Shown here piece after piece: positions 441 through 64,000 of a DNA stretch of 64,000 nt. The notes under the pieces were generated by a model, which ran no database searches, was not told the DNA's origin, and was given only the letters and a program-made list of their open reading frames with translations. Source of the stretch: Escherichia coli (GTDB lineage: Bacteria; Pseudomonadota; Gammaproteobacteria; Enterobacterales; Enterobacteriaceae). The stretch is taken from the NCBI RefSeq assembly GCF_044647545.1, contig NZ_CP172818.1, one strand, 5' to 3'. Position numbers and translations under genes: made by a program. Positions within the stretch are counted from its first letter, which is position 1; every line of letters starts with the position of its first letter.

Positions 441-451
441 AATGCCTCCTT

Positions 452-3380: not shown

Positions 3381-3435
3381 TATTTAATTCCTGTTATTGG
3401 GTTAAGCCTTAAAAAGGACACAACAAGATTGTTAT

Positions 3436-3981: not shown

Positions 3982-3992
3982 AGAAACTCTCC

Positions 3993-4959: not shown

Positions 4960-5035
4960 TTAAAGGTGGTCGCTCAGGCGGTCACCGTATTCGATAATAA
5001 ATGGGTCTGGAAAAAGTGCAGCATCTGGCAGCGTA

Positions 5036-7791: not shown

Positions 7792-7855
7792 ATAATTTTC
7801 GCGTAATACAAATGACAAATTGATAGCAAGGCCCCTTTACCGGGGCCCTGAAGCG

Positions 7856-8962: not shown

Positions 8963-8981
8963 TGTGACTGTCTCCTGTCTA

Positions 8982-10121: not shown

Positions 10122-10136
10122 TATACCTGTTATACC
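10122..10136 (-). promoter_or_regulatory. Candidate NanR operator (two GGTATA hexamers, GGTATAACAGGTATA on the minus strand)
   Basis: Plus strand reads tatacc-tgt-tatacc, about 420 bp upstream of nanC. Confidence 0.5.
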
Positions 10137-11544: not shown

Positions 11545-11715
11545 CAGTTGATGCGCAACGGTACGATTATTCCAGCGAATAACACGGTATCGTTAGGAGC
11601 AGTAGGGACTTCGGCGGTAAGTCTGGGATTAACGGCAAATTACGCACGTACCGGAGGGCAGGTGACTGCAGGGAATGTGCAATCGATTATTGGCGTGACT
11701 TTTGTTTATCAATAA
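11545..11715 (+). pseudogene. fimH: 3' remnant of fimH (type 1 fimbrial adhesin); the rest of the fim operon is absent
   Basis: Translation ...RNGTIIPANNTVSLGAVGTSAVSLGLTANYARTGGQVTAGNVQSIIGVTFVYQ* matches the FimH C-terminus; upstream frame dissolves into GC-rich filler. Confidence 0.85.
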
Positions 11716-11785
11716 AGAAATCACAGGGCATTGCTAATGCAGGTACGCAATATTACCTGAAGCTAAAAACCTGCACGTTAGCCCT

Positions 11786-11826
11786 TTGTAGGCCAGATAA
11801 GACGCGTCAGCGTCGCATCTGGCATA
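11786..11826. repeat. REP (repetitive extragenic palindromic) element
   Basis: tgtaggccagataagacgcgtcagcgtcgcatctggcat, canonical REP consensus. Confidence 0.7.
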
Positions 11827-11887
11827 AACAAAGCGCACTTTGCGACAATCCGAACAGAGCCCGCCATTGGCAGGCTCTGGTGTTCTT

Positions 11888-13231
11888 TTACGCTACCATG
11901 CTAATAATCAACACAATAATCAGCCCAACCACGGAGTTGACCAGCTCCAGCAGTCCCCAGGTTTTCAACGTGTCTTTTACCGACAGGTCAAAGTAACCTT
12001 TGAACAGCCAGAATGAGGCATCATTAATGTGGGTGAGGGTGTTGGAACCCGCAGCCGTCGCCAGCACCAGCAGCGCCGGATTCACGCCAACCAGCTGACC
12101 GGTTGCTGGATCAAGGATTGCAGCACTGATAATCCCGGCGGCGGTCATCGCCGAAACGACACCCTGACCCGTCGCCAGACGAATTAGCACAGTGATCAGC
12201 CATGCCATAATGTAGGGCGAGATATTGCCGTGGGACATCAACATGCCGATGGTGTCGCCAATGCCGGTGTCGATGATAGTTTGCTTCAACACGCCACCCG
12301 CACCGATGATCAGAATCACCATTGCAATGCTTTTCACCGCACTTTCAAAAGCGTTCATCACCCACTGCATGTCATGACCACGTGCGGTGCCAAAGAGTAC
12401 GAATGCAACCACCATCGCAATAAACATTGCAATCGGCGAGGAACCGATAAAGTTAACCACTTCCCAGGCAGGGGTATCTTTTACCAGCCAGATATTGGCG
12501 ATGGTGGTGGAGATCATAATGATCGCCGGGATCAGCGGCACCAGAATCGAAACGCCGAAAGAGGGCAGATTGTTCATATCTACCGGTTGATCTGCTTTCA
12601 GGAATGATGGCGTTGGGCGCTCAAGATTGCCGAGGAACTTCGGCAGGATCAGACCTGCGCAGATTACACTTGGGATCGTCACCAGTACGCCATAGATATA
12701 AACCATCCCCATATCTGCGCCATAAGCATTCACCAGCGCCACAGGACCCGGCTGCGGTGGGAACAGTGAATGTGCGGTAGTGGCAGCTGCTACTGCCGGG
12801 ATCGCCAGTTTCAGGAACGGAATTTTAGCTTCGGCGGCAATGACAATAACCAGCGGCGCTAACATGATAAAGGCCACTTCATAGAACATCGCCAGACCAA
12901 AAATCAGGCCGATGATAATCACCGACAGCTGTACATAGCGCAGACCGAGACGCGCCAGCAGCGTATGTGCTATCTGGTGAGCCGCGCCGGAGTCGACCAT
13001 CAATTTACCGATGACCGCACCGAACACCACGATGATAGCCAGTTCCCCCAGCGTGTTGCCGAAGCCCGCTTTCATGGTGTGCAGCAGCGACATCAAATCC
13101 ATGCCCGCCAGCATCCCGACGGACAGCGCCGCCACCAACAAAGCCACCATTGAATTGATTTTGAACTTCAAATTCAGTACCAGCATCAGACCAATGCCGA
13201 ATACCACCCAGAGAATGTTAAGCACATGCAT
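11888..13231 (-). CDS. gntP: Fructuronate/gluconate transporter (GntP family)
   Basis: 447-aa multi-[22 protein letters not shown]... Confidence 0.9.
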
Positions 13232-16439: not shown

Positions 16440-16474
16440 GTAGGCCGGATAAGGCGTTCACGCCGCATCCGGCA
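16440..16474. repeat. REP element
   Basis: gtaggccggataaggcgttcacgccgcatccggca. Confidence 0.7.
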
Positions 16475-16510
16475 AAAATTTGATTAACCGCACCTAACGG
16501 ACACAACACC

Positions 16511-30376: not shown

Positions 30377-31205
<829 letters not shown>

Positions 31206-31332
31206 AGGACGCTGGTGCACTAATGACGAAACAAAGGAGGGGTTCTTCACGTTTGTGAAGGTGCCGAAACTGGATATGGACTATTGAGTGAAATGTCAGG
31301 CCGCAGATGCGGCGCCATCATCCGGCCCAAAA

Positions 31333-44953: not shown

Positions 44954-45060
44954 ACTGTTTCTCAAATATGGAACGATGAACGAGAAGGGAGATAACTTTT
45001 ATAGTAACACACGGAGGAGAGGAGGCTGTCTCTCATCCGCGTGCTTTAAGTGAGGCAATT

Positions 45061-45534
45061 TTATACGCGAGGGCGCTTGCGGTACAACCATAATCCAGGA
45101 ATGGAAAGACCGATGGATAACGCACCAACAATTGATGAAGCTGTAAGAAAGTTGGTTAACAGGGTAATCATCAACGGTTCGCTGTAGCCTAGCTGACTGA
45201 TTTTTACCGCCGAAATCATTGCAGTATAAGCTGATATGCCAGGAAACATAGGGATAACAGCCGCCACGGTAAACACTTTCGGATGCGCCAGATACCAGCG
45301 CGACCATTGAATACCAATGGTGCCGACCAGCATAGAAGCCATAAAGGTTGACCACTCAATATTCAGCCCGCTGGTCATTAAGATCATTCGGGAACCATGA
45401 CCAATCGCGCCAAGCAGCGCACACCAGCGTAATGCCCGAACGGGAACGTTGAACACCATCGCAAAGCCGACCGCTGGAATGGCGGCGAGGATCATATCCT
45501 GCGCCAATGCAAACAGAAACTCGATCACACCCAT
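45061..45534 (-). CDS. yjjB: Succinate exporter subunit YjjB (DUF3815)
   Basis: ORF 45061-45549; start [20 protein letters not shown]...; overlaps the yjjP 3' end. Confidence 0.75.
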
Positions 45535-46295
45535 CCGCGTAGCCCCCAAATCGTCAGTGCCATCACCACGCCGACGCAGGTAGCCAGTGTCAGCAGACTG
45601 GCGATCGCCCAGCGTGCCAGTCCGGTATTGATGTGGCCTTTAAACATATCGGCGACGGCATTAATCAACGGAAAGCCCGGCACCAGCAGCAGAACGCTGG
45701 CGGCCATTGCAATGGTGGGTGTATTGCTGAAGGTGGGAAGTTGCAAAAGCAAACCGGAAATAGTGGTGGCGGCGAAAGCGGTGAGGCAAAAGTTGATCTG
45801 TGGATGAAGATGACGTTGTGCCAGTAGCTGGCGGATATACATCGCGGCCGTACTGGCAAAGAAGGTGATGACGGCACCATCCCAGCCACCGTTATTGAGT
45901 TTACAGAAACAGGCGCAAGAAAGGCCAACCATTAAGGCTACCAGCCATCTTGGGTAACGTAATGGCTGAATTTGGCTAAATCGTTTCTCTACGCCTTTGT
46001 AATCCAGCAGATGGTGCTCCGCCAGAATCACAATGTGCTGGACTTCAGTCACCACATGCATATTAATGCCGCGATCGTGATTTTTACGTGTCGATGTCAG
46101 GCATTGCCCATCTTTAATGGTTGTCAGCACTATGGCGTTCGAAGAGATAGAACTTTCGACGCTGTCCATTCCCAGCGCCCGACCCAGTCGTGAGGAAAGC
46201 TCATCAACCAACGCGCTTTCCGCACCATGTTGCAAAAGAAATAATCCACACTGGATACAAAGCCGTGTTACGGCTCGCTGTTGCTCAGTTTGCAT
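45525..46295 (-). CDS. yjjP: Succinate exporter subunit YjjP (ThrE/DUF1212 family)
   Basis: ORF 45525-46358; ATG at 46293-46295 ([17 protein letters not shown]...) gives 256 aa. Confidence 0.75.
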
Positions 46296-46379
46296 AACTC
46301 GCCCTTTGTCATAGACGTGCTGCGTATTGTTCAGATAATGAGAATTCATTTGTATCATGAAGCACGGTTGTTTTGCGGT

Positions 46380-46910
46380 AGGTTAAGATCAAAATTGCGC
46401 TGATTAATCCTGGTTATCGGGAGAAGCTCGGTGATAAAAAGCGAATTATCTCTCGCCGCAAACAAATTATCACATGAATATTATCACCATAATGAATTTA
46501 TTGTTTGGCCTTTACGAATCAGGATAATAGATAACTGGGCGCGTTTTTTAATGCCAACAAGTTAAAACAATCAGATTTTATTGAATAAATATTGGTTGTG
46601 TGATTTTGCATTTTGCGGGAAGAGGTATCATTGAATTATAAATTAAATGAATGATATTTCTGTTTTTCATTAAGTATTTCTAACAACTTAATGTAGATAT
46701 TTTAAATGTCTCCAGGCTATTTCACCAGATTATCATTTGATGCTAACCTTCTGACACATGCAGTGGAGTTGTTGTGCAGCAGGAGTATGCTGATATGAAA
46801 GTGAATGCTAAGGATAATTTATTCGCTTAATCTATTAATTTGCTGGAAACATTTAAGGAATGAATATCCTGAATAAACCATCATGATTTTTAGACAGTGG
46901 ATGTGGAGGA
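46380..46910. promoter_or_regulatory. AT-rich yjjP-yjjQ intergenic region (candidate H-NS-silenced, LeuO-activated yjjQ-bglJ promoter region)
   Basis: About 530 bp of strongly AT-rich DNA with A/T tracts upstream of yjjQ. Confidence 0.5.
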
Positions 46911-46913
46911 AAT

Positions 46914-47639
46914 ATGTTGCCAGGATGCTGCAAAAATGGAATTGTTATCAGTAAAATACCTGTTATGCAAGCAGGGTTAAAAGAGGTCATGAGGACTCAC
47001 TTCCCTGAATATGAAATAATATCCAGCGCCTCTGCGGAGGACCTTACCTTATTACAATTACGTCGTTCCGGATTAGTCATTGCTGATTTAGCCGGTGAAA
47101 GTGAAGATCCACGTTCTGTTTGTGAACATTATTATTCTTTAATCTCACAATATCGGGAAATTCACTGGGTTTTCATGGTGTCACGCTCCTGGTATTCCCA
47201 GGCAGTAGAATTGCTCATGTGCCCTACGGCGACGTTATTGTCTGATGTTGAACCCATTGAGAATCTGGTCAAGACCGTACGTTCCGGCAATACGCACGCA
47301 GAGCGTATCAGCGCCATGCTGACCTCTCCGGCAATGACTGAAACTCATGATTTTAGCTATCGCTCCGTCATTCTTACTCTTTCAGAGCGCAAGGTACTGC
47401 GGCTATTAGGTAAAGGATGGGGCATCAACCAGATAGCTTCGTTGCTTAAGAAAAGTAATAAAACTATCAGCGCCCAAAAAAACAGTGCGATGCGTCGACT
47501 GGCAATTCACAGCAACGCTGAAATGTATGCATGGATAAATAGCGCGCAGGGTGCAAGAGAACTTAACTTGCCTTCTGTTTATGGAGATGCCGCAGAATGG
47601 AACACAGCCGAATTAAGAAGAGAAATGTCGCACTCATAG
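46914..47639 (+). CDS. yjjQ: LuxR/FixJ-type transcriptional regulator
   Basis: 241-aa ORF with C-terminal LuxR HTH (..[41 protein letters not shown]..). Confidence 0.85.
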
Positions 47640-48274
47640 AAAAATGCGTCATGAGCAGTATCGGTATTGAGAGTTTATTCAGAAAGTTTGCGGGTAACCC
47701 TTATAAGCTCCATACCTATACCAGTCAGGAGTCATTTCAGGATGCCATGTCGCGGATCTCGTTTGCGGCGGTCATTTTTTCTTTTTCTGCCATGAGAAGT
47801 GAGCGCAGAGAGGGATTATCTTGCCTGACTGAACTGGCGATTAAGTTTCCGCGTACCCGGCGTTTAGTTATTGCGGATGATGATATTGAAGCTCGGCTGA
47901 TTGGTTCATTGTCGCCATCACCGCTGGACGGTGTATTAAGTAAAGCGTCAACGCTGGAGATTTTTCATCAGGAACTCTTTTTGTCATTAAATGGTGTACG
48001 TCAGGCGACCGACCGACTGAACAATCAGTGGTACATTAACCAAAGCCGGACGCTAAGTCCGACGGAGAGAGAAATATTGCGCTTTATGTCGCGTGGCTAC
48101 TCAATGACACAAATTGCCGAGCAGCTTAAACGTAATATCAAAACGATCCGCGCGCATAAATTTAATGTGATGTCGAAACTGGGCGTCAGTTCTGATGCAG
48201 GGTTGTTGGAGGCCGCAGATATTCTGTTATGTATGCGGCATTGTGAAACAAGTAATGTGTTGCATCCCTATTAA
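47597..48274 (+). CDS. bglJ: LuxR/FixJ-type regulator BglJ
   Basis: 225-aa ORF overlapping the yjjQ 3' end by 43 bp; C-terminal HTH (..[44 protein letters not shown]..). Confidence 0.85.
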
Positions 48275-48311
48275 TCCACATGATGCCGGGTTTACTTCCC
48301 CGGCAGTGCTT

Positions 48312-49100
48312 TCATTTCAGCGTACAATCGCCACATTGCTGCACATCCGGTAAGCGATAACGCTGGCAGCAAGTGCGGCGCACCAGCAGGCCGTCGCGTA
48401 GCACCACGGTACGCCAGAGTGGATTATCTTCACCGTTCGTGAGCGTTTTCTCAAAAAAGAGGGCATGGCGCAGCGATTCAACCGTCGCCTCGCCGAGCAG
48501 TTGCTTCATCTCAGTGAGATACCAGTTGATCAAATAACCGGTATTACTCCAGATAAGTTTGCCGTTGATCTCTCCGGTCGCTTCTAGTGCCTGCACAACC
48601 GGAACCAGCGCCTGGCTGATTAACGTTTCCATTCGCTGCTGCGGCGAATGTGGTGTTGCGTTTTTATCTTCACACACATCGACCCAGAAACAGGCGGCAC
48701 GGCCGGTTTCGTGAAACTCAGCATGGAAATGTTCCGGCGACACATCTAATGCTTTTTCCTGCGTCAGTAGCGCCAGCATTAATGGTGGCACCATCAGGCC
48801 GATATACCATTGTGCCCATAGTGAGATCAGCGGTTTGTTCTCGCGGATCATCGTTGGTTGGTTGCGATAGATATGATCGGAATAGACCGCCAGTAGAGAA
48901 CTTAGCGCATTCGGTGATGACCATTGCGCCAGCGTCATGGCGTTAAGCGGAGCGGGTTCATCCAGGCGGATAAACTCCAGCAAATGTTCACGATGTTCGG
49001 CGATCGTCGCACGTACGGCTTGTGCAAGCCCAGCATCCTGCGGCTGGAGATGCGTTCGCCAGATGATATCTTCATAGAGCGGTGCGGAACGATAGGCCAT
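48312..49100 (-). CDS. fhuF: Ferric-siderophore reductase FhuF (2Fe-2S)
   Basis: 262-aa ORF ending in a C-terminal Cys cluster (..TCCQRYRLPDVQQCGDCTLK). Confidence 0.9.
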   Translation of the reverse strand: MAYRSAPLYEDIIWRTHLQPQDAGLAQAVRATIAEHREHLLEFIRLDEPAPLNAMTLAQWSSPNALSSLLAVYSDHIYRNQPTMIRENKPLISLWAQWYIGLMVPPLMLALLTQEKALDVSPEHFHAEFHETGRAACFWVDVCEDKNATPHSPQQRMETLISQALVPVVQALEATGEINGKLIWSNTGYLINWYLTEMKQLLGEATVESLRHALFFEKTLTNGEDNPLWRTVVLRDGLLVRRTCCQRYRLPDVQQCGDCTLK

Positions 49101-49120
49101 AATCGTGATAGTAATCTAAA

Positions 49121-49225
49121 TGATAATGATTGCTAATCATAGCGATAGGTTTACCCGATAGCAAGGGATTTCCCTGGCTTGCAAATGATAAAAATTATCA
49201 TATGATATTGGTTATCATTATCAAT
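49121..49225. promoter_or_regulatory. Fur boxes in the divergent fhuF/yjjZ promoter region
   Basis: tgataatgattgctaatcat (49121-49140) and atgataaaaattatcatatgatattggttatcattatc (49185-49222) resemble GATAATGATAATCATTATC. Confidence 0.7.
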
Positions 49226-49240
49226 GAAAGAGATGAAACC

Positions 49241-49477
49241 ATGTTGCAACGTACGCTGGGCAGTGGCTGGGGAGTGTTGCTGCCAGGATTGCTGATTGCA
49301 GGGCTGATGTATGCGGATTTATCGCCGGATCAGTGGCGGATTGTCATTCTGATGGGATTAGTATTGACGCCGGTGATGCTGTATCACAAACAGTTACGGC
49401 ATTACGTTTTGCTACCATCGTGCCTGGCGCTTATTGCTGGCATCATGCTGATGATAATGAATTTGAATCAGGGATGA
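49241..49477 (+). CDS. yjjZ: Small Fur-regulated inner-membrane protein
   Basis: ORF 49130-49477; start at 49241 (MLQRTLGSGWGVLLPGLLIAG...) gives 78 aa downstream of the Fur boxes. Confidence 0.7.
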   Translation: MLQRTLGSGWGVLLPGLLIAGLMYADLSPDQWRIVILMGLVLTPVMLYHKQLRHYVLLPSCLALIAGIMLMIMNLNQG

Positions 49478-49515
49478 AAAATCAAGGAAGAAACAAGAAA
49501 GGAAGTAAAGATAAT

Positions 49516-49602
49516 TGGTGCGAGGGGGGGGACTTGAACCCCCACGTCCGTAAGGACACTAACACCTGAAGCTAGCGCGTCTACCAATTCCGCCACCTTC
49601 GC
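49516..49602 (-). tRNA. leuV: tRNA-Leu (anticodon CAG)
   Basis: 87-nt complement reads GCGAAGGTGGCGGAATTGGTAGACGCGCTAGCTTCAGGTG...CACCA. Confidence 0.9.
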
Positions 49603-49636
49603 ACAGTCATCTTACTTTTTTTGATATCGCCTCGTT

Positions 49637-49723
49637 TGGTGCGAGGGGGGGGACTTGAACCCCCACGTCCGTAAGAACACTAACACCTGAAGCTAGCGCG
49701 TCTACCAATTCCGCCACCTTCGC
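49637..49723 (-). tRNA. leuP: tRNA-Leu (anticodon CAG), one-base variant in the variable arm
   Basis: Same 87-nt tRNA as leuV except gtaagaacac for gtaaggacac; 34-bp spacer from leuV. Confidence 0.9.
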
Positions 49724-49751
49724 CCAGTGCGAGCAATATCAACGTGGTTTT

Positions 49752-49838
49752 TGGTGCGAGGGGGGGGACTTGAACCCCCACGTCCGTAAGGACACTAACA
49801 CCTGAAGCTAGCGCGTCTACCAATTCCGCCACCTTCGC
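49752..49838 (-). tRNA. leuQ: tRNA-Leu (anticodon CAG)
   Basis: Third 87-nt copy; 28-bp spacer from leuP; copy names assigned by K-12 map order. Confidence 0.9.
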
Positions 49839-49993
49839 ATACCATCAATTCTTAAAAAGAATTGCTACCACGGAGGCGCATTCTAGTGGTTTTCAGCTTT
49901 TCGTCAATAGTTAATTATCGCCGGAGGTGTAATTGCTGGAAAAATGTCCATCAGGAAACTAGCGTGCAGGTTTGGTAGGCATGCGGGGGCAGA

Positions 49994-50087
<94 letters not shown>

Positions 50088-50105
50088 CGGTATTCGGCGA
50101 GATAA

Positions 50106-51137
50106 TTAACCTTTCTTCGCCTGGCGGGTCATAATGGCGCGATACACCTTGAAACGCCCGGTTTGCGCAATCACTTCATGGAAGCCAAATGTCTCATCCA
50201 GCACGTCCGGGTAAGGCAGGAAGGCGTTCGCTACAATTCGCAGCTCGCCGCCGCTATTAAGATGACGCACCGCGCCGCGAATCAGCGTTTGCGCCGCATC
50301 CAGGCTGGTTTGCATCCCATCGTGGAACGGCGGGTTGGAGATGATCATATCAAAACGACCTTTCACCTCGGAAAAGACGTTGCTGGCAAAGACTTCACCT
50401 TCAACACCGTTGGCCGCAAGTGTTGCGCGGCTGGCTTCTACCGCTGGCGCAGAGACATCGCACAAGGTGAGACGAATTTTCGGCGAATGGCGCGCAAAGG
50501 CAACTGAAAGCACACCCGCGCCACAGCCGACATCCAGCACTTTACCTTTCGTGTGCGGGGTTAACGTCGAGAGCAGCAACTGGCTACCGACATCCAGACC
50601 GTCGCGGCTAAACACGCCAGGCAGCGTTTTGACCGTCAGGCCATCGACGCTGTATTCGCCCCAGAATTTATCGGCATCAAATACCGGCTGTTTTTCCAGA
50701 CGACCAAAATAGAGGCCACAGCGACGAGCGCTGTCGACTTTATTCAACGGCGCATAATCTGCCAGCATCTGCTCGGCGCTGCGCACGCCGCTGCGGTTCT
50801 CGCCAACGACAAAAATATCTGTCCCCACTGGCAGCAGAGAAAGTAAATTCATCAACTGGAACTGGGCTTCCGGTTTGTTCTTCGGCCAGTAGTAAATCAG
50901 CGTATCGCAATCTGCGACGTCATCCACCGTGGCGACCAGACTGAAACGGGCGTTATCCCCCATCTGGCGGCTTAATACCTGCCAGTGGTGGAATTGCTGG
51001 GTATGAGCACGGCTGGCCGCGGTATCTAAACGCGCGGGCAGGTCATCCTGTAAGTCTCCGGCAAACAGAATACGGCTTTGTTCGAAATCATCACTGTGAC
51101 GCAGCAAGACTTCACTTGCCGGGGTAAATGCAGACAT
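50106..51137 (-). CDS. rsmC: 16S rRNA m2G1207 methyltransferase
   Basis: 343-aa ORF with SAM-binding motif [11 protein letters not shown]. Confidence 0.9.
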
Positions 51138-51239
51138 GGAATGCTCCTCAATTGATACTGGCGGCGATTATAGCCATATGTTGGCGCGGTATCGACGAAT
51201 TTGCTATATTTGCGCCCCTGACAACAGGAGCGATTCGCT

Positions 51240-51653
51240 ATGACATCCCGACGAGACTGGCAGTTACAGCAACTGGGCATTACCCAGTGGTCGCTGCGTC
51301 GCCCTGGCGCGTTGCAGGGGGAGATTGCCATTGCGATCCCGGCACACGTCCGTCTGGTGATGGTGGCAAACGATCTTCCCGCCCTGACCGATCCTTTAGT
51401 GAGCGATGTTCTGCGCGCATTAACCGTCAGCCCCGATCAAGTGCTGCAACTGACGCCAGAAAAAATCGCGATGCTGCCGCAAGGCAGTCGCTGCAACAGC
51501 TGGCGGTTGGGTACTGACGAACCGCTATCACTGGAAGGCGCTCAGGTGGCATCACCGGCGCTCACCGAATTACGGGCAAACCCAACGGCACGCGCCGCGT
51601 TATGGCAACAGATTTGCACATATGAACACGATTTCTTCCCTCGAAACGACTGA
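51240..51653 (+). CDS. holD: DNA polymerase III psi subunit
   Basis: 137-aa ORF MTSRRDWQLQQLGITQWSLRRPGALQGEIA... Confidence 0.9.
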   Translation: MTSRRDWQLQQLGITQWSLRRPGALQGEIAIAIPAHVRLVMVANDLPALTDPLVSDVLRALTVSPDQVLQLTPEKIAMLPQGSRCNSWRLGTDEPLSLEGAQVASPALTELRANPTARAALWQQICTYEHDFFPRND

Positions 51654-52068
51654 TTTACCAGCGGCTTACCACATTGAACAACGCGCCCACGCCTTTCCGT
51701 GGAGTGAAAAAACCTTTGCCAGCAACCAGGGCGAGCGTTATCTCAACTTTCAGTTAACGCAAAACGGCAAAATGGCGGCGTTTGCGATTACGCAAGTGGT
51801 GCTGGATGAAGCTACATTGTTCAATATTGCGGTCGATCCTGACTATCAGCGTCAGGGATTGGGAAGGGTGCTGCTGGAACATCTGATCGACGAACTGGAA
51901 AAACGCGGCGTGGCGACGCTCTGGCTGGAAGTCCGTGCCTCAAATGCTGCCGCCATTGCCCTGTACGAAAGTTTAGGCTTTAACGAGGCGACGATTCGCC
52001 GCAATTACTACCCCACCACGGACGGTCGCGAAGACGCCATCATCATGGCGTTGCCAATCAGTATGTAA
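51622..52068 (+). CDS. rimI: Ribosomal protein S18 alanine N-acetyltransferase
   Basis: 148-aa GNAT ORF overlapping the holD 3' end. Confidence 0.9.
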
Positions 52069-52082
52069 GACAAGGTGGAATA

Positions 52083-52760
52083 ATGAAGTGGGACTGGATT
52101 TTCTTTGATGCCGATGAAACGCTGTTTACCTTTGACTCATTCACCGGCCTGCAGCGGATGTTTCTTGATTACAGCGTCACCTTTACCGCTGAAGATTTTC
52201 AGGACTATCAGGCCGTTAACAAGCCACTGTGGGTGGATTATCAAAACGGCGCGATCACTTCATTACAGCTTCAGCACGGGCGTTTCGAGAGCTGGGCCGA
52301 ACGGCTGAAAGTTGAAGCAGGCTTGCTTAACGATGCCTTTATTAATGCGATGGCGGAAATCTGCACGCCGCTGCCGGGCGCGGTTTCTCTGCTTAACGCC
52401 ATTCGTGGCAACGCCAAAATCGGCATCATCACCAACGGCTTTAGCGCCTTGCAGCAAGTGCGTCTGGAACGCACGGGCCTGCGTGATTACTTCGATTTGC
52501 TGGTGATTTCCGAAGAAGTTGGCGTTGCTAAACCGAATAAGAAAATTTTCGATTATGCGCTGGAACAGGCGGGCAATCCTGACCGTTCACGCGTGCTGAT
52601 GGTTGGCGACACTGCCGAGTCCGATATTCTCGGTGGCATCAACGCCGGGCTTGCGACCTGCTGGCTGAATGCGCACAATCGCGAGCAACCAGAAGGCATC
52701 GCGCCCACCTTGACCGTTTCTTCGTTGCACGAACTGGAGCAGCTCCTGTGTAAACACTGA
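52083..52760 (+). CDS. yjjG: HAD-family pyrimidine 5'-nucleotidase
   Basis: 225-aa ORF with HAD motif I ([11 protein letters not shown]). Confidence 0.9.
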
Positions 52761-52850
52761 TTGCCTCCCCCCCGTTGATGGGTAAAATAGCCGCAATTTT
52801 TCGTTTTCAACAAGCGCGGCGCGATGCCGCTTACTCAAGAAGAAAGAATT

Positions 52851-54440
52851 ATGACGTTGTCTCCTTATTTGCAAGAGGTGGCTAAGCGCCGCACTTTTGC
52901 CATTATTTCTCACCCGGACGCCGGTAAGACTACCATCACCGAGAAGGTGCTGCTGTTCGGACAGGCCATTCAGACCGCCGGTACAGTAAAAGGCCGTGGT
53001 TCCAACCAGCACGCTAAGTCGGACTGGATGGAGATGGAAAAGCAGCGTGGGATCTCCATTACTACGTCTGTGATGCAGTTTCCGTATCACGATTGCCTGG
53101 TTAACCTGCTAGACACCCCGGGGCACGAAGACTTCTCGGAAGATACCTATCGTACCCTGACGGCGGTGGACTGCTGCCTGATGGTTATCGACGCCGCAAA
53201 AGGTGTTGAAGATCGTACCCGTAAGCTGATGGAAGTTACCCGTCTGCGCGACACGCCGATCCTCACCTTTATGAACAAACTTGACCGTGATATCCGCGAC
53301 CCGATGGAACTGCTCGATGAAGTTGAGAACGAGCTGAAAATCGGCTGCGCACCGATCACCTGGCCGATTGGCTGCGGCAAGCTGTTTAAAGGCGTTTACC
53401 ACCTTTATAAAGACGAAACCTATCTCTATCAGAGCGGTAAAGGTCACACCATTCAGGAAGTCCGCATTGTTAAAGGGCTGAATAACCCGGATCTCGATGC
53501 TGCGGTTGGTGAAGATCTGGCGCAGCAGCTGCGTGACGAACTGGAACTGGTGAAAGGCGCGTCTAACGAGTTCGACAAAGAATTGTTCCTTGCGGGCGAA
53601 ATCACTCCGGTATTCTTCGGTACTGCGCTGGGTAACTTCGGTGTCGATCATATGCTGGATGGCCTGGTGGAGTGGGCTCCTGCGCCGATGCCGCGTCAGA
53701 CTGATACCCGTACCGTAGAAGCGAGCGAAGACAAATTTACCGGCTTCGTATTTAAAATTCAGGCCAACATGGACCCGAAACACCGCGACCGCGTGGCGTT
53801 TATGCGCGTGGTATCCGGTAAATATGAAAAAGGCATGAAGCTGCGCCAGGTGCGCACCGCGAAAGACGTGGTGATCTCTGACGCGCTGACCTTTATGGCG
53901 GGTGACCGTTCGCACGTTGAAGAAGCGTATCCTGGCGATATCCTCGGCCTGCACAACCACGGCACCATTCAGATCGGCGACACCTTTACCCAGGGTGAGA
54001 TGATGAAGTTCACCGGTATTCCGAACTTCGCACCAGAACTGTTCCGTCGTATCCGCCTGAAAGATCCGCTGAAGCAAAAACAGCTGCTCAAAGGGCTGGT
54101 ACAGCTTTCCGAAGAGGGCGCGGTGCAGGTGTTCCGTCCGATCTCCAACAACGATCTGATCGTTGGTGCAGTTGGTGTGCTGCAGTTTGATGTAGTGGTA
54201 TCGCGCCTGAAGAGCGAATACAACGTTGAAGCAGTATATGAATCAGTCAACGTTGCCACCGCCCGCTGGGTAGAATGTGCAGACGCGAAGAAATTCGAAG
54301 AGTTCAAGCGTAAGAACGAAAGCCAACTGGCGCTTGATGGCGGCGATAACCTCGCTTACATCGCTACCAGCATGGTCAACCTGCGCCTGGCGCAGGAACG
54401 TTATCCGGACGTTCAGTTCCACCAGACCCGCGAGCATTAA
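52851..54440 (+). CDS. prfC: Peptide chain release factor 3 (GTPase)
   Basis: ORF 52824-54440; ATG at 52851 gives [31 protein letters not shown]... (529 aa). Confidence 0.95.
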
Positions 54441-54832
54441 TTCTTGCCTCCAGGGCGCGGTAGCCGCTGCGCCCTGTCAATTTCCCTTCCTTATTAGCCG
54501 CTTACGGAATGTTCTTAAAACATTCACTTTTGCTTATGTTTTCGCTGATATCCCGAGCGGTTTCAAAATTGTGATCTATATTTAACAAAGTAATGACATT
54601 TCTGACGGCGTTAAATACCGTTCAATGCGTAGATATCAGTATCTAAAGCCGTCGATTGTCATTCTACCGATATTAATAACTGATTCAGAGGCTGTAATGG
54701 TCGTTATTCATCACCCATCGCTTTTGTGATGGCGACCATTGACTTCTGTAGAGGGTGAAGTCTCTCCCTATTCAGCAATGCAACCTCGTGTTGCCAGGCT
54801 CAAATTACGAGCAAACATACAGGAATAAATCG

Positions 54833-55438
54833 ATGACTATGACAAGACTGAAGATTTCGAAAACTCTGCTGGCTGTAATGTTGACCTCTGCCGTCGCGAC
54901 CGGCTCTGCCTACGCGGAAAACAACGCACAGACTACCAATGAAAGCGCAGGGCAAAAAGTCGATAGCTCTATGAATAAAGTCGGTAATTTCATGGATGAC
55001 AGCGCCATCACCGCGAAAGTGAAGGCGGCGCTGGTGGATCATGACAACATCAAGAGCACCGATATCTCTGTCAAAACCGATCAAAAAGTCGTGACCCTGA
55101 GCGGTTTCGTTGAAAGCCAGGCTCAGGCCGAAGAGGCAGTGAAAGTGGCGAAAGGCGTTGAAGGGGTGACCTCTGTCAGCGACAAACTGCACGTTCGCGA
55201 CGCTAAAGAAGGCTCTGTGAAGGGCTACGCGGGTGACACCGCCACCACCAGTGAAATCAAAGCCAAACTGCTGGCGGACGATATCGTCCCTTCCCGTCAT
55301 GTGAAAGTTGAAACCACCGACGGCGTGGTTCAGCTCTCCGGTACCGTCGATTCCCAGGCACAGAGCGACCGTGCTGAAAGTATCGCCAAAGCGGTAGATG
55401 GTGTGAAAAGCGTTAAAAATGATCTGAAAACTAAGTAA
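54833..55438 (+). CDS. osmY: Osmotically inducible periplasmic protein (two BON domains)
   Basis: ORF 54755-55438; ATG at 54833 gives [28 protein letters not shown]... (201 aa). Confidence 0.9.
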
Positions 55439-55566
55439 TTCGTCGTAATTCGTCCTCCCGAACTTTGTCGGGAGGCGCGATGTGCACCACACTAAAAATA
55501 TCGCATTGAGTGATTTTCACGCTCATATCAAGCGGTGACATTAACTATGGTAAAGGAGACGCTTAT

Positions 55567-55728
55567 ATGTTTCGTTGGGGCATCATATTTCTGGTTATCG
55601 CGTTAATCGCCGCCGCACTTGGGTTTGGTGGTCTGGCCGGTACTGCTGCAGGCGCAGCTAAAATTGTCTTTGTCGTCGGGATTATTCTGTTCCTGGTGAG
55701 TTTGTTCATGGGCCGAAAACGACCCTAG
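55567..55728 (+). CDS. ytjA: Small membrane protein (DUF1328)
   Basis: ATG at 55567 gives [53 protein letters not shown]; RBS AAAGGAG. Confidence 0.75.
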
Positions 55729-55848
55729 ATTTCAGACCATTAAGAAAATTTTATCCAAAGCCAGTCCAGCGGACTGGCTTTTGCGGTTTTAGCGAATAAT
55801 AAATTGCGTTACTTTGTCATTCTTTCACAACAAAACAGGAAGGCAGAG

Positions 55849-56922
55849 GTGGGGCAGCGAATACCTGTAACGCTTGGTAATATTGCGCCGTTGTCGCTAA
55901 GGCCGTTCCAGCCTGGACGAATAGCTCTGGTGTGCGAAGGCGGCGGGCAGCGTGGAATTTTCACAGCTGGCGTGCTGGATGAGTTTATGCGCGCGCAGTT
56001 TAATCCTTTCGATCTTTATCTCGGCACATCTGCCGGGGCGCAGAACCTCTCGGCGTATATCTGCAATCAGCCCGGTTACGCGCGCAAAGTCATCATGCGC
56101 TATACCACAAAACGCGAATTTTTCGATCCATTGCGCTTTGTCCGTGGAGGAAATCTTATCGATCTCGACTGGCTGGTGGAGGCCACCGCAAGCCAGATGC
56201 CGTTGCAAATGGACACCGCAGCGCGGCTATTTGACAGCGGCAAATCGTTTTATATGTGCGCCTGTCGTCAGGATGACTACGCGCCGAATTACTTTTTACC
56301 AACCAAACAAAACTGGCTGGATGTGATTCGCGCCTCCAGTGCAATACCTGGCTTTTATCGTAGCGGAGTGTCGCTGGAAGGCATTAATTACCTGGATGGC
56401 GGGATCAGTGATGCGATCCCGGTTAAAGAGGCGGCAAGGCAGGGCGCAAAAACGTTGGTCGTTATCCGCACTGTGCCGTCACAAATGTACTATACGCCGC
56501 AGTGGTTCAAACGCATGGAACGCTGGCTGGGTGACAGTAGCCTGCAGCCGCTGGTCAATCTGGTGCAGCATCATGAAACCAGCTATCGTGAGATTCAGCA
56601 ATTTATTGAGAAACCACCGGGCCAGTTGAGGATATTCGAAATTTATCCGCCGAAGCCATTACATAGTATCGCGCTCGGCAGTCGGATTCCGGCGCTGCGT
56701 GAAGACTATAAACTTGGGCGTTTATGCGGGCGTTATTTTCTGGCAACGGTCGGTAAGTTATTGACTGAAAAAGCGCCGCTGAGCCGCCATCTGGTGCCGG
56801 TGGTGACGCCGGAGTCGATCGTTATTCCGCCTGCACCCGTCGCCAACGATACGCTGGTTACCGAGGTGATAGACGCTCCACAGGCGAACGACCCGACATT
56901 TAACAATGAGGATTTGGCTTGA
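55849..56922 (+). CDS. yjjU: Patatin-like phospholipase
   Basis: ORF 55804-56922; GTG at 55849 with RBS AGGAAGG gives 357 aa; GxSxG motif GTSAG and N-terminal GGGQRG. Confidence 0.8.
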   Translation: MGQRIPVTLGNIAPLSLRPFQPGRIALVCEGGGQRGIFTAGVLDEFMRAQFNPFDLYLGTSAGAQNLSAYICNQPGYARKVIMRYTTKREFFDPLRFVRGGNLIDLDWLVEATASQMPLQMDTAARLFDSGKSFYMCACRQDDYAPNYFLPTKQNWLDVIRASSAIPGFYRSGVSLEGINYLDGGISDAIPVKEAARQGAKTLVVIRTVPSQMYYTPQWFKRMERWLGDSSLQPLVNLVQHHETSYREIQQFIEKPPGQLRIFEIYPPKPLHSIALGSRIPALREDYKLGRLCGRYFLATVGKLLTEKAPLSRHLVPVVTPESIVIPPAPVANDTLVTEVIDAPQANDPTFNNEDLA

Positions 56923-57803
56923 TTTGCCGTTTTATCGACACCCACTGCCATTTTGATTTCCCGCCGTTTAGTGGCGATGAAGAGGCCAGCCTGCAACGCG
57001 CGGCACAAGCGGGCGTAGGCAAGATCATTGTTCCGGCCACCGAGGCGGCAAATTTTGCCCGCGTGCAGGCGTTAGCGGAAAATTATCAACCGCTGTATGC
57101 CGCTTTAGGGTTGCATCCGGGGATGTTGGAAAAACATAGCGATGTGTCTCTTGATCAGTTACAGCAGGCGTTGGGAAGACGTCCGACGAAGGTGGTGGCG
57201 GTGGGGGAGATCGGCCTGGATCTCTTTGGTGACGATCCGCAATTTGAGAGGCAGCAGTGGTTGCTTGATGAACAACTGAAACTGGCGAAACGCTACGATC
57301 TGCCGGTGATCCTTCATTCACGGCGCACGCACGACAAACTGGCGATGCATCTTAAACGCCAAAATTTGCCACGCACTGGTGTGGTTCATGGTTTTTCTGG
57401 CAGCCTGCAACAGGCCGAACGGTTTGTGCAGCTGGGCTACAAAATTGGCGTAGGCGGTACTATCACCTATCCACGCGCCAGTAAAACCCGCGATGTCATC
57501 GCAAAGCTGCCGCTGGCATCGATGTTGCTGGAGACCGACGCACCAGATATGCCGCTCAATGGTTTTCAGGGGCAGCCTAATCGCCCTGAACAGGCCGCCC
57601 GTGTGTTTGCCGTGCTGTGCGAGTTACGCCCGGAACCCGCGGATGAGATTGCCGAAGTGTTGCTTAATAACACGTATGCGGTGTTTAACGTTCGTGGAGC
57701 CGAGCCGAAGCGCACGCACGCAGCACAACGAGCCCCTAGTCTGCCCTTCGTAAGCCGGATAAGGCGTTCACACCGCATCCGGCAGTCGACGCACAATGCC
57801 TGA
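56919..57803 (+). CDS. yjjV: TatD-family metal-dependent hydrolase/DNase with an apparent C-terminal extension into REP repeats
   Basis: TTG start overlapping the yjjU stop; MICRFIDTHCHFDFPPF...; TatD-like body ends near 57692, but the frame stays open to TGA at 57801-57803. Confidence 0.7.
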   Translation: MICRFIDTHCHFDFPPFSGDEEASLQRAAQAGVGKIIVPATEAANFARVQALAENYQPLYAALGLHPGMLEKHSDVSLDQLQQALGRRPTKVVAVGEIGLDLFGDDPQFERQQWLLDEQLKLAKRYDLPVILHSRRTHDKLAMHLKRQNLPRTGVVHGFSGSLQQAERFVQLGYKIGVGGTITYPRASKTRDVIAKLPLASMLLETDAPDMPLNGFQGQPNRPEQAARVFAVLCELRPEPADEIAEVLLNNTYAVFNVRGAEPKRTHAAQRAPSLPFVSRIRRSHRIRQSTHNA

Positions 57804-57953
57804 TGCGACGCTGACGCGTCTTATCATGCCTACAAGTCTGTGCCGAACCGTAGGCCGGATAAGGCGTTCACGCCGCATCCGGCAGTTGGCGCACAATGCC
57901 TGATGCGACGCTGACGCGTCTTATCATGCCTACAGGTCTGTGCCGAACCGTAG
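57754..57953. repeat. Tandem duplication (2 x 100 bp) of a REP-containing BIME unit
   Basis: Two near-identical 100-bp units starting at 57754 and 57854. Confidence 0.8.
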
Positions 57954-57957
57954 GCTG

Positions 57958-58821
57958 TCACAAATACAGCGCCGGAAATATCAACCGGCTCACCCCGTGC
58001 TCCCGTAACGCATCAGCCAATTGCTCAACGTCTTCCGGCGTGGCGCTCGCCCAGCTTTGCGCCTCGCCATACACGCCGTGGGCATGAAACGCGTTCAGGC
58101 GTACCGGAACATCGCCAAGTCCCTTGATAAACGCCGCCAGCTCATCGATATGCTGCAAATAATCCACGTGGCCTGGGATTACCAGCAAACGCAGTTCTGC
58201 CAGTTTGCCGCGCTCGGCAAGCAGACTAATGCTGCGCTTGATCTGCTGATTATCGCGTCCGGTTAGCTGTTGATGGCACGCGCCACCCCACGCTTTGAGG
58301 TCGAGCATCGCGCCGTCGCATACCGGGAGTAATTTTTCCCAGCCGGTTTCGCTCAACATGCCGTTACTGTCCACCAGACAGGTGAGATGACACAGTTGTG
58401 GATCATTTTTGATAGCAGTAAACAGCGCCACCACAAACGGCAACTGGGTCGTGGCTTCACCGCCGCTTACCGTTATCCCTTCAATAAACAGCACCGCTTT
58501 GCGGACGTGACTAAGCACCTCGTCCACGTTCATGGATTGCGCCATCGGCGTAGCGTGTTGTGGACACATCTTCAGGCAGGTATCACACTGCTCGCAGACG
58601 GCTGCGTTCCACACTACTTTGCTGTTAACAATCTGCAACGCCTGATGCGGACACTGTGGCACGCACTCCCCGCAATCATTACAGCGCCCCATTGTCCACG
58701 GATTGTGACAGTTTTTGCAGCGCAGATTACAGCCCTGTAAAAACAGAGCCAGACGACTGCCTGGCCCGTCAACGCAGGAGAAGGGGATAATCTTACTGAC
58801 TAAAGCGCATCTGCTGTTCAT
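57958..58821 (-). CDS. yjjW: Glycyl-radical enzyme activating enzyme (radical SAM, PflA-like)
   Basis: 287-aa ORF with Cys-rich motifs (..[12 protein letters not shown].., ..[12 protein letters not shown]..). Confidence 0.85.
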
Positions 58822-60343
58822 GGCTTATCACGCGCGACTGGCGTTCCAGAATACGAGTGTTGCGTGCGGCTTCTTCTCCCAGCCAGGTGGTATTGGTACG
58901 TGAACCTTCGGCACGATATTTTTCTAAATCCGACAAACGCACCATATAACCGGTAACGCGAACCAGATCGTTACCGCTGACATTGGCGGTAAATTCACGC
59001 ATTCCGGCTTTAAAGGCACCGAGGCAAAGCTGTACCAGCGCCTGCGGATTACGTTTGATGGTTTCGTCGAGCGTCAAAATGTCGCTGATGCCGGAATAAT
59101 AATAAGCATGATGCGGGGCGACAGTTTGCAGATGGGTGATCGGATCTGGCTCATCGCCATACGGCAAACGCGCGCCCGGCGTGGTGCCGATATCGGAACT
59201 TATCCCCGACTGTGCGTGTAGCATGGCGCGATTTTGCCAGCCATATTTCACGGGGGTATTGGCGACAAACTCCGCCAGTTGCGCGCTGATGCGATAACCC
59301 ACTTCATTTGCAGCGGCTTCTTTACCGTAACGTGCGGCAATTCCTTCTTTCTCACACAACAAGTTAACCGCTTCTGCCAGTCCGTACATGCCAAACATTG
59401 GCACAAAACGTTCAGGGTTAATCAGCCCTTCTTTCACCAGGAAGCTATTCTCAAAGAAGTGTGATTGTTGATAGAGGAATTCACACCGCGCATCGATGAT
59501 GGCGATTTGCTGCTGGCAGTAGTGCGGTAGAGTGCGCGTAAAGAAATCATCCAGCGATTCACTGCGCTCGGCAATGGCTTTCAGGTTAAGGCGTACCAGC
59601 GTGCTGCCACCACCCGCCAGCGGCAGTGAGTTGTAACAGCTCACAATCCCGTAGCCCCCTTTTGTGAAAATTTTATCATGCACGGGACCGTTGGCGATGT
59701 GCGGTTTGCTACATTCACAGATGTTTTTCGCCACTTCCAGCAGCAGGTCATCAGGGGTGATTTCAGGATCGTAGATAAAAGTCAGGTTCGGTGAAACCTG
59801 CTTCAGCTCTGAATCTGCCCGTAAAATCGCACGGGTAATGGGCGAATCAGACGGGCCAATATTGGCGTGCATAAAGGCATCTGGCAGGGTTCTATCGAGG
59901 TAACGCCAGAAACGTTTTATTCGAATATCGATCTCGTTTTGTGTTAGAATTCTAACATACGGTTGCAACAACGCATCCAGTTGCCCCAGGTAGACCGGCA
60001 TCGATGTGACCGAAGGAACGTGGTGGTAAAGAATGGTCAGCAGAGAGAGTGCGTCATCAAGATCTTTTGCGCCTTCCAGCTCCAGCCATTCGGAACCGTT
60101 GGCCAAAAAACGGGCGTAATCGGGTAAGACATAGCGCGGTTTATACGGCGCATGACCTTCAAACATATCGCAGATTACACCTTCATCCAGCGCGCGGCGG
60201 GCTTCGGCAGGAAGCTGTGGGTAAGGCAGATTGTTTTCTGCTTCCAGCGCCAGAAAATGGCGCTTCTGCTCCGGGCTAAGTACCGGACTGGTGACAATTT
60301 GCTGGCAACGTTGTTGCAGTGCATTTTCATGAGAAGTGGGCAT
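58793..60343 (-). CDS. yjjI: Uncharacterised glycine-radical-enzyme-like protein (DUF3029)
   Basis: ORF 58793-60472; ATG at 60341-60343 ([17 protein letters not shown]...) with RBS AAGGAA gives 516 aa; 3' end overlaps yjjW. Confidence 0.8.
59663..59678. promoter_or_regulatory. Candidate DeoR operator OE (degenerate)
   Basis: tgtgaaaattttatca, 12/16 match to TGTTAGAATTCTAACA, 278 bp upstream of O1. Confidence 0.4.
59941..59956. promoter_or_regulatory. DeoR operator O1 (deoP1), inside the yjjI coding region
   Basis: Perfect 16-bp palindrome TGTTAGAATTCTAACA. Confidence 0.75.
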
Positions 60344-60541
60344 CTTCTGTTCCTTTTTATGCCGAAGGTGATGCGCCATTGTAAGAAGTTTCGTGATGTT
60401 CACTTTGATCCTGATGCGTTTGCCACCACTGACGCATTCATTTGAAAGTGAATTATTTGAACCAGATCGCATTACAGTAATGCAATTTTGTAAGTAGATT
60501 TCCTTAATTGTGATGTATATCGAAGTGTGTTGCGGAGTCGA

Positions 60542-60557
60542 TGTTAGAATACTAACA
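60542..60557. promoter_or_regulatory. DeoR operator O2 (deoP2)
   Basis: TGTTAGAATACTAACA, 45 bp upstream of the deoC ATG and 601 bp from O1; TGTGA-containing CRP/CytR-type motifs lie just upstream (60440-60540). Confidence 0.75.
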
Positions 60558-60601
60558 AACTCGCAAGGTGAATTTTATTGGCGACAAGCCAGGAGAATGA
60601 A

Positions 60602-61381
60602 ATGACTGATCTGAAAGCAAGCAGCCTGCGTGCACTGAAATTGATGGACCTGACCACCCTGAATGACGACGATACCGACGAGAAAGTGATCGCTCTGTGT
60701 CATCAGGCCAAAACTCCGGTCGGTAATACCGCCGCTATCTGTATCTATCCTCGCTTTATCCCGATTGCTCGCAAAACGCTGAAAGAGCAGGGCACCCCGG
60801 AAATCCGTATCGCTACGGTAACTAACTTCCCACACGGTAACGACGACATCGAAATCGCGCTGGCAGAAACCCGTGCGGCAATCGCCTACGGTGCCGATGA
60901 AGTTGATGTGGTGTTCCCGTACCGTGCACTGATGGCGGGTAACGAGCAGGTTGGTTTTGATCTGGTGAAAGCCTGTAAAGAGGCTTGCGCAGCAGCGAAT
61001 GTACTGCTGAAAGTGATCATCGAAACCGGCGAACTGAAAGACGAAGCGCTGATCCGCAAAGCGTCTGAAATATCCATTAAAGCGGGTGCTGATTTCATCA
61101 AAACCTCTACCGGTAAAGTAGCAGTGAACGCGACGCCGGAAAGCGCGCGCATCATGATGGAAGTGATCCGTGATATGGGCGTAGAGAAAACCGTTGGTTT
61201 CAAACCGGCGGGCGGCGTGCGTACTGCGGAAGATGCGCAGAAATATCTCGCGATTGCAGATGAACTGTTCGGTGCTGACTGGGCTGATGCGCGTCACTAC
61301 CGCTTTGGTGCTTCCAGCCTGCTGGCAAGCCTGCTGAAAGCGCTGGGCCACGGCGACGGTAAGAGCGCCAGCAGCTACTAA
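60602..61381 (+). CDS. deoC: Deoxyribose-phosphate aldolase
   Basis: ORF 60578-61381; ATG at 60602 with RBS AGGAGA gives [29 protein letters not shown]... (259 aa). Confidence 0.95.
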
Positions 61382-61423
61382 GCTGCCTTTTGCCAGAGGG
61401 TGGATGCTATGGGTCGAGTACCC

Positions 61424-61463
61424 CTGTAGGCCTGATAAGATGCGTCAGCATTGCATCAGGCAA
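61424..61463. repeat. REP element
   Basis: ctgtaggcctgataagatgcgtcagcattgcatcaggcaa. Confidence 0.7.
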
Positions 61464-61520
61464 TAACAACATCCGCCATCTGGCAACAACGCCTTCAAAC
61501 TTATTCCACGGGAGGTTACC

Positions 61521-62843
61521 TTGTTTCTCGCACAAGAAATTATTCGTAAAAAACGTGATGGTCATGCGCTGAGCGATGAAGAAATTCGCTTCTTTATCAA
61601 CGGCATTCGCGACAACACTATCTCCGAAGGGCAGATTGCCGCCCTCGCGATGACCATTTTCTTCCACGATATGACAATGCCGGAGCGTGTCTCGCTGACC
61701 ATGGCGATGCGAGATTCAGGAACCGTTCTCGACTGGAAAAGCCTGCATCTGAATGGCCCGATTGTTGATAAACACTCCACCGGCGGCGTCGGCGATGTGA
61801 CTTCGCTGATGTTAGGGCCGATGGTGGCTGCCTGCGGCGGCTATATTCCGATGATCTCCGGTCGCGGCCTCGGCCATACTGGCGGTACGCTCGACAAACT
61901 GGAATCCATCCCTGGCTTCGACATCTTCCCGGATGACAACCGTTTCCGCGAAATTATTAAAGATGTTGGCGTGGCGATTATCGGCCAGACCAGCTCGCTG
62001 GCTCCGGCGGATAAACGTTTCTATGCGACCCGCGACATTACCGCAACCGTGGATTCCATCCCGCTTATCACCGCCTCGATCCTGGCGAAGAAACTGGCGG
62101 AAGGTCTGGATGCGCTGGTGATGGACGTGAAAGTCGGTAGCGGCGCGTTTATGCCGACCTACGAACTCTCTGAAGCCCTTGCCGAAGCGATTGTTGGCGT
62201 GGCTAACGGTGCTGGCGTGCGCACCACCGCGCTACTCACCGACATGAATCAGGTGCTGGCCTCCAGTGCCGGTAACGCGGTTGAAGTTCGTGAAGCGGTG
62301 CAGTTCCTGACTGGTGAGTATCGTAACCCGCGTCTGTTTGATGTCACGATGGCACTGTGCGTGGAGATGTTGATCTCCGGCAAACTGGCGAAAGATGACG
62401 CCGAAGCGCGCGCGAAATTGCAGGCGGTGCTGGACAACGGTAAAGCGGCAGAAGTCTTTGGTCGTATGGTAGCGGCACAAAAAGGCCCGACCGACTTCGT
62501 TGAGAACTACGCGAAGTATCTGCCGACAGCGATGCTGACGAAAGCAGTCTATGCTGATACCGAAGGTTTTGTCAGTGAAATGGATACCCGCGCGCTGGGA
62601 ATGGCAGTGGTTGCAATGGGCGGCGGTCGCCGTCAGGCATCTGACACCATCGATTACAGCGTCGGCTTTACTGATATGGCGCGTCTGGGCGACCAGGTAG
62701 ACGGTCAGCGTCCGCTGGCGGTTATCCACGCGAAAGACGAAAACAGCTGGCAGGAAGCGGCGAAAGCGGTGAAAGCGGCAATTAAACTTGCCGATAAAGC
62801 ACCGGAAAGCACACCGACTGTCTATCGCCGTATCAGCGAATAA
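61521..62843 (+). CDS. deoA: Thymidine phosphorylase
   Basis: 440-aa ORF from TTG at 61521 with RBS GGGAGG; [21 protein letters not shown]... Confidence 0.95.
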
Positions 62844-62873
62844 CGGTATACTGATCTGATCATTTAAATTTGA

Positions 62874-64000
<1,127 letters not shown>

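Follow-up and report, generated by a model that had tools for sequence, protein, structure and literature searches.

The tandem repeat at 57749-57955, between yjjV and yjjW, is very probably this strain's allele of the chromosomal BIME-2 element that is annotated REP352 in K-12, and it fills the gap between the two genes. It is an already known and ordinary BIME-2, and its two-unit state is without special meaning. "The window" means here the whole 64,000-nucleotide stretch of Escherichia coli DNA that was analysed, and all positions are given on it.

Tandem Repeats Finder reported a single array in 56500-59500, at 57749-57955, with a period of 100, 2.1 copies, 95% matches, 0% indels and a score of 379. 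A second repeat search returned the same pair (57749-57848 against 57849-57948) at 95% identity. When 57754-57853 is compared with 57854-57953 there are four mismatches, at 57772 (A/G), 57787 (C/T), 57789 (A/G) and 57835 (A/G), and the register chosen by Tandem Repeats Finder adds a fifth at 57753 (A/G). The first-pass annotation had described an exact 100-bp tandem duplication. The tandem repeat is present, head-to-tail and well past chance expectation, but the word "exact" does not hold, as the copies are 95-96% identical with four to five differences. The array also reaches 5 nt further to the left and 2 nt further to the right than the 57754-57953 interval given there, and it closes with GTAGGC, a stub 6-7 nt long that belongs to a third unit. 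The same array was found, base for base, in the independently finished complete genomes WP4-S18-ESBL-09 and MS6198, and it is therefore not an assembly artefact. The features of the array and its surroundings are as follows.

56919-57803, plus strand: yjjV open reading frame (TatD-family hydrolase) as read in the window; 294 aa long (260 aa normally), of which the last 34 are a frameshift tail
57698-57736, plus strand: 39-nt T-free string, AGCCGAGCCGAAGCGCACGCACGCAGCACAACGAGCCCC, replacing the last G of yjjV codon 260; outside the BIME
57737-57739, plus strand: natural yjjV TAG stop, out of frame in the window; in relatives it precedes the first REP stem by 14 nt
57749-57955, no strand: whole BIME-2 array, two full 100-nt units and a 6-7-nt stub, from Tandem Repeats Finder and the mismatch count
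57750-57783, plus strand: unit 1 Y-type REP (GTAA followed by GCCGGATAAGGCGTTCACACCGCATCCGGC), motif match at 57754
57784-57797, no strand: unit 1 short linker of 14 nt, AGTCGACGCACAAT, without the IHF consensus, from sequence reading and unit comparison
57798-57833, minus strand: unit 1 Z2-type REP, inverted, GCCTGATGCGACGCTGACGCGTCTTATCATGCCTAC, motif match at 57798
57834-57849, no strand: inter-unit linker of 16 nt, AAGTCTGTGCCGAACC, kept in all units at the locus in other strains
57850-57883, plus strand: unit 2 Y-type REP (GTAG followed by GCCGGATAAGGCGTTCACGCCGCATCCGGC), motif match at 57854; inside the naRNA4 match 57853-57930
57884-57897, no strand: unit 2 short linker, AGTTGGCGCACAAT, from sequence reading and unit comparison
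57898-57933, minus strand: unit 2 Z2-type REP, inverted, motif match at 57898
57934-57955, no strand: terminal linker and the stub (GTAGGC) of a third Y REP; 2 nt lie between the array and the yjjW stop codon
57958-58821, minus strand: yjjW (glycyl-radical enzyme activase), convergent with yjjV, stop codon at 57958-57960

Read on the plus strand, each unit consists of GTAG, a 30-nt Y palindrome, a 14-nt linker, a 36-nt Z2 palindrome and a 16-nt linker. The Y palindrome is GCCGGATAAGGCGTTCAC(A/G)CCGCATCCGGC, preceded by GTAG (GTAA in unit 1), and the Z2 palindrome closes with CTAC; GTAG thus stands 5' of Y and CTAC 3' of Z2. Two variants are private to the Y REP of unit 1 (GTAA for GTAG, and A57772), and its hairpin is the weaker one. 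Unit comparison showed the Y motif to be that of the K-12 REP325 and REP352 units. In relatives the natural intergenic space between yjjV and yjjW is 218 nt, 207 nt of which are array.

BIME-2 elements have been defined as z2 plus y in many tandem copies, with a short linker and a copy number that varies between strains (PMC3333891), and the array agrees with this definition. Y REPs (57754 and 57854) are paired with inverted Z2 REPs (57798 and 57898) in 2.1 tandem copies, and the linkers are short (14 nt within and 16 nt between units). Unlike the linker of BIME-1 they are free of the IHF consensus (WATCAANNNNTTR), which had no match in 57700-57960. The linkers that flank BIME-2 units are classed as s, l or r; those of the array, read for length and sequence, differ from the linkers of REP325. 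In relatives the array is extragenic, lying wholly between the stop codons of yjjV and yjjW. The number of units varies from 0 to 5 among 59 complete genomes, and in strain L1PEag1 a Y REP at this locus is the target of an IS1397 insertion. Because the palindromes match the Y/Z2 consensus and related sequence occupies the locus in other strains, membership in BIME-2 was not refuted. The first-pass annotation was accordingly right to see a REP/BIME unit in tandem and right to place it between convergent genes, with yjjV on the plus and yjjW on the minus strand. Its remark that tandem BIME arrays are already known also holds.

Other REP sequences occur in the window. Its sole IHF-consensus match (AATCAAATTTTTG, 16473-16485) lies beside a perfect Y-REP motif with an inverted partner at 16444-16485, and from its sequence this is probably a BIME-1 or RIP-type element. 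Three tandem tRNA genes at 49519-49838 (tRNA-Leu in relatives) are followed at 49995-50071 by a Z2-like and a Y-like REP with one mismatch each, forming a small BIME.

Both units of the array also matched the Rfam family RF02564 (naRNA4) on the plus strand, over model positions 1-77 of 77. The scores were 79.1 bits (57853-57930) and 69.6 bits, against an Rfam gathering score of 59.5 bits. Minus-strand matches of 54.7 and 50.3 bits were under the gathering score, and the two array units are the only naRNA4 matches above threshold in the 64-kb window.

The first-pass annotation had asked for a comparison of copy number across E. coli, and this gave 0 to 5 units among 59 sampled genomes. The query was a fusion of two 400-nt pieces, one from the 3' end of yjjV and one from that of yjjW, and it matched 5,423 genomes. 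Sixty genomes were drawn evenly down the ranking of these 5,423, the number of units was read from the anchor-to-anchor distance, and 59 could be scored. In the sampled genomes the anchor gaps fall on a ladder of steps of about 100 nt, as listed here.

Anchor gap 33-34 nt: 0 units, 3 genomes
Anchor gap 116-117 nt: 1 unit, 14 genomes
Anchor gap 217-235 nt: 2 units, 12 genomes
Anchor gap 318 nt: 3 units, 4 genomes
Anchor gap 418-420 nt: 4 units, 10 genomes, the K-12 and B strains among them
Anchor gap 519-520 nt: 5 units, 16 genomes

Direct inspection of 0-, 1-, 3-, 4- and 5-unit allele sequences upheld these unit counts, and in the 0-unit allele only a collapsed REP remnant, GTAGGCCACATCCGGCATG, is left. 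Among the sampled genomes the number of units was steady within clones (2 in each of the three O157:H7 genomes, 4 in each of the four K-12 derivatives). It differed between lineages, with O157:H7 and several other sampled lineages at 2 units. Units 3 and 4 of strain EC1 have exactly the sequence of unit 2 of the window. In the sixtieth genome, L1PEag1, a Y REP of the yjjV-yjjW gap has IS1397 inserted in its loop (L010 3401-4870), and a study named in the reference list of PMC3333891 has IS1397 inserting specifically in the palindromic units of BIMEs.

Descriptions of BIME-2 arrays that differ in copy number from strain to strain go back to the 1990s. Strains with no unit at the locus are evidently viable, so the array is dispensable, and its copy number may be close to neutral. 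Gain and loss of units would come from unequal homologous recombination between the direct repeats of 100 nt, or from slippage between them during replication. The activity of TnpA-REP (RAYT) is another possible route, and BIME recombination promoted by TnpA-REP has been discussed (PMC3333891). The locus can serve as a modest VNTR marker, with 0-5 units on a 100-nt ladder, and it provides a natural allelic series for the effects of REP dosage on convergent 3' UTRs.

The neighbourhood of the array differs from its flanks. Identity to K-12 is 88-94% in a patch at about 56600-58650, compared with 96-99.7% in the flanks. Within the patch lie yjjV and the array, with the 3' end of yjjU on one side and the 3' half of yjjW on the other. 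The 800 nt of anchors around the array reached at least 95% identity in only 38 of the 5,423 genomes. MS6198 is 98.4% identical upstream and 100% identical downstream, near the BIME. These comparisons suggest that the patch at about 56600-58650 was imported or is an ancient allele, and that mosaic breakpoints lie close to the BIME. At the other end of the window, positions 1-6807 have no counterpart at the corresponding place in WP4-S18-ESBL-09, and for 1-12500 no complete RefSeq genome exceeds 98.9% identity, a value reached over 95% of the segment.

The first-pass annotation had further stated that the repeat is directly coupled to readthrough of yjjV. The readthrough arises because the last G of codon 260 is replaced by the 39-nt string, a net gain of 38 nt that shifts the frame, and this is its sole cause. 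The TatD domain of YjjV (aa 6-257) is untouched by the frameshift. The shifted frame runs on for 34 extra codons and meets a TGA at 57801-57803, inside the first Z2 REP and 50 nt into the array. Positions 45000-57697 and 57737-64000 are 100% identical to WP4-S18-ESBL-09, and the string is the only difference between the two over 45000-64000. In WP4-S18-ESBL-09 yjjV has a normal GGG-TAG end, followed by the same two-unit array. The coupling therefore does not stand: the array is the same base for base in strains that have an intact yjjV stop and lack the string, so the duplication and the readthrough are independent. The only link between array and readthrough is one of position, in that the shifted frame meets its TGA in the first Z2 REP.

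The string itself is 72% G+C, contains no T and lies 12 nt from the array. It was found in none of 5,426 complete E. coli genomes, and its two flanks were matched at 100% in 478 genomes, where they span 73 nt rather than 111 nt. A 26-nt core of the string had no exact match in two public collections (genome contigs and metagenome contigs), and blastn against E. coli genomes and plasmids gave only chance-level matches, with E-values of 0.04 to 5. None of its 12-mers recurs in the window. An origin of the string from the adjacent REP, as a copy that has decayed and lost its T, was considered and rejected, as the local alignment score of 23 (shuffle mean 18) was reached by 37 of 500 shuffles and is not significant. 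The length of the T-free run is not significant alone either, since runs of at least 42 nt without one of the bases occurred in 76 of 200 shuffled windows.

Two other parts of the window, 10880-11544 and 30382-31326, consist of G-rich junk with poly-G runs at places where WP4-S18-ESBL-09 carries IS1. The second contains more than 110 consecutive G, and 30900-31015 is almost pure G. Both align to WP4-S18-ESBL-09 at about 67% identity, with substitutions mostly to G or C, and look like sequence corruption at repeats and not biology. The 39-nt string may be a sequence artefact of the same kind, and string and poly-G junk together point to a problem of sequence quality, not to biology. It is rather unlikely that the string is a genuine mutation in a living strain, in which case YjjV would carry a 34-residue tail and ribosomes would have to traverse the hairpin of the first Y REP before they reach a stop in the Z2 REP. 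A deliberate insertion is another conceivable source of the string. Should the string be real, it would offer a natural test of how REP-to-stop spacing and ribosome unwinding affect translation, trans-translation and mRNA stability. The origin of an insert that sits beside a BIME and has no matches in the searched collections would then have to be explained. The repeat is not to be taken for a recent event, nor tied to the yjjV readthrough, which is itself suspect because the window is clearly corrupted at other repeats.

These data bear on two other accounts of the repeat. One is that a BIME unit was recently duplicated in this strain only, by a mechanism tied to the loss of the yjjV stop, and it draws on the position of the string just 12 nt upstream of the array and on the stop of the frameshifted ORF inside unit 1. 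However, units that differ at four to five positions are not fresh, and the identical array is found in WP4-S18-ESBL-09, MS6198 and other genomes that keep the GGG-TAG end of yjjV. The match of unit 2 to the EC1 units and the two units of O157:H7 and other lineages likewise speak against it, and this account can be given almost no credence. The other account is that the repeat is an assembly artefact like other parts of the window. The poly-G, GC-biased junk at places where relatives have IS1 does indicate that the sequence is unreliable at repeats. However, the array is 100% identical to that of independently finished genomes and fits the 100-nt ladder of alleles, which makes an artefact exceedingly improbable.

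What a REP352 allele of this kind would do can be considered from its predicted structure. As RNA, the single REPs fold with energies of -14.8 to -20.9 kcal/mol: the Y REP hairpin has -15.6 kcal/mol in unit 1 and -20.9 kcal/mol in unit 2, and the Z2 REP hairpin of unit 1 has -14.8 kcal/mol. Together, the Y and Z2 REPs of a unit form a single long hairpin of about 86 nt. Its energy is -36.6 kcal/mol in unit 1, where the private variants weaken it, and -48.2 kcal/mol in unit 2. The z-scores for folding of the whole array were -5.2 on the plus strand and -6.4 on the minus strand, and across folds they ranged from -3.8 to -6.6. No intrinsic terminator (hairpin and U tract) was found in 57700-57960 on either strand, the two matches of the scan being inside yjjV, and a canonical promoter was looked for in the array and not found.

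By analogy with REP325 and with genome-wide data, the REPs would fold into stable hairpins when transcribed from either side. Since 207 of the 218 nt between the genes are array and there is no canonical terminator, both convergent transcripts would end in these hairpins, which would serve the two genes as a common two-way 3'-UTR element. By the same analogy, they may block 3'-to-5' exonucleases, and they may partly stop transcription and so prevent readthrough from one operon into the other. REP325 has been reported to be a partial Rho-dependent terminator and a stabiliser of the upstream mRNA (bioRxiv 10.64898/2026.03.23.713779). In the same study 207 of 704 convergent gene pairs in K-12 (about 30%) hold a REP, with both genes more highly expressed, and the location of the array between convergent genes is therefore ordinary. 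That study also found the effects of REPs across the genome to be context-dependent and variable. A search of its supplements for yjjV, yjjW and REP352 gave only a differential-expression row for yjjW, which is uninformative on the array.

Convergent transcription is a site of positive supercoil build-up, and the array lies exactly between convergent genes. The array is probably a gyrase-binding site at the DNA level too, judging from other BIME-2 elements. A stronger form of this proposal is that its role is mainly at the DNA level, as a high-affinity gyrase site or a topological insulator. It would take up the positive supercoils that arise between the two converging transcription units, and the RNA hairpins would be incidental. 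According to work cited in PMC3333891 (Espeli and Boccard 1997; refs 2-5), gyrase cleaves BIME-2 elements in vivo, and REPs have been described as topological insulators. However, a DNA-level role is compatible with one at the RNA level, and the 0-unit lineages show that the array is not required, so the stronger form is considered possible but is not favoured. A quite different proposal is that the units are naRNA4-like genes whose transcripts bind HU and help to condense the nucleoid, as has been proposed for REP325. In its favour, the plus-strand RF02564 matches of both units are above the gathering score and span all 77 nt of the model, and naRNA4 is reported as an HU-binding RNA that restores condensation of the nucleoid (PMC4550694). 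However, the Rfam model fits essentially any BIME-2 unit with a Y-linker-Z2 layout, so a match reflects architecture and not function, and the linkers here are unlike those of REP325. In addition, deletion or overexpression of REP325/naRNA4 left nucleoid volume and REP-REP contacts unchanged (bioRxiv 10.64898/2026.03.23.713779), and the existence of genomes with 0 units means that an HU role is not required at this locus. The HU role is thus disputed even for REP325, and an naRNA4-like function of the units seems distinctly improbable.

The closest known system is REP352a-h of K-12 MG1655 (EcoCyc), with which the array shares the locus, the flanking genes and the Y-linker-Z2-linker unit, and the units are 93-97% identical. 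The two differ in several details. K-12 has four units of 101 nt whereas the window has two of 100 nt, and the Z2 loop is one base shorter in the window (GCTGACGC vs GCTTGACGC). The REP remnant at the right-hand end is GTAGGCCGTATCCGGCATG in K-12 and is 11 nt shorter in the window. In K-12 yjjV is 780 nt long and its TAG lies inside the first GTAG, whereas in the lineage of the window yjjV is 783 nt long and stops 14 nt before the REP stem. The array abuts the yjjV stop codon in both. REP352a-h overlaps yjjV by 2 nt in K-12 and is listed as lying inside the 15-nt distance at which arrays are reported to influence how the upstream gene is translated (bioRxiv 10.1101/2024.07.17.603846). It is also one of the eight arrays of that mobilome study and the only one of them not predicted to be RAYT-associated.

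REP325, which lies between yjdM and yjdN in K-12 and encodes naRNA1-6, has the same 100-nt period and the same order of Y (30 nt), linker, Z2 (36 nt) and linker, with REP palindromes nearly identical to those of the window. However, its linkers are unrelated in sequence and the overall identity is 79-81%. REP325 consists of six repeats of Y-l-Z2, of which naRNA4 is one unit (PMC4550694), and these six units lie between co-directional genes, whereas the two units of the window lie between convergent genes. BIME-1 or RIP elements (Y and Z1, with a long L linker that has an IHF site) resemble the array in being paired inverted REPs in intergenic DNA. They differ from it in that the array has Z2 in place of Z1, a short linker, tandem units and no IHF consensus. 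Finally, the REPINs mobilised by RAYT/TnpA-REP have a REP-doublet geometry like that of the Y and Z2 hairpins of about 86 nt in the window (bioRxiv 10.1101/2024.07.17.603846).
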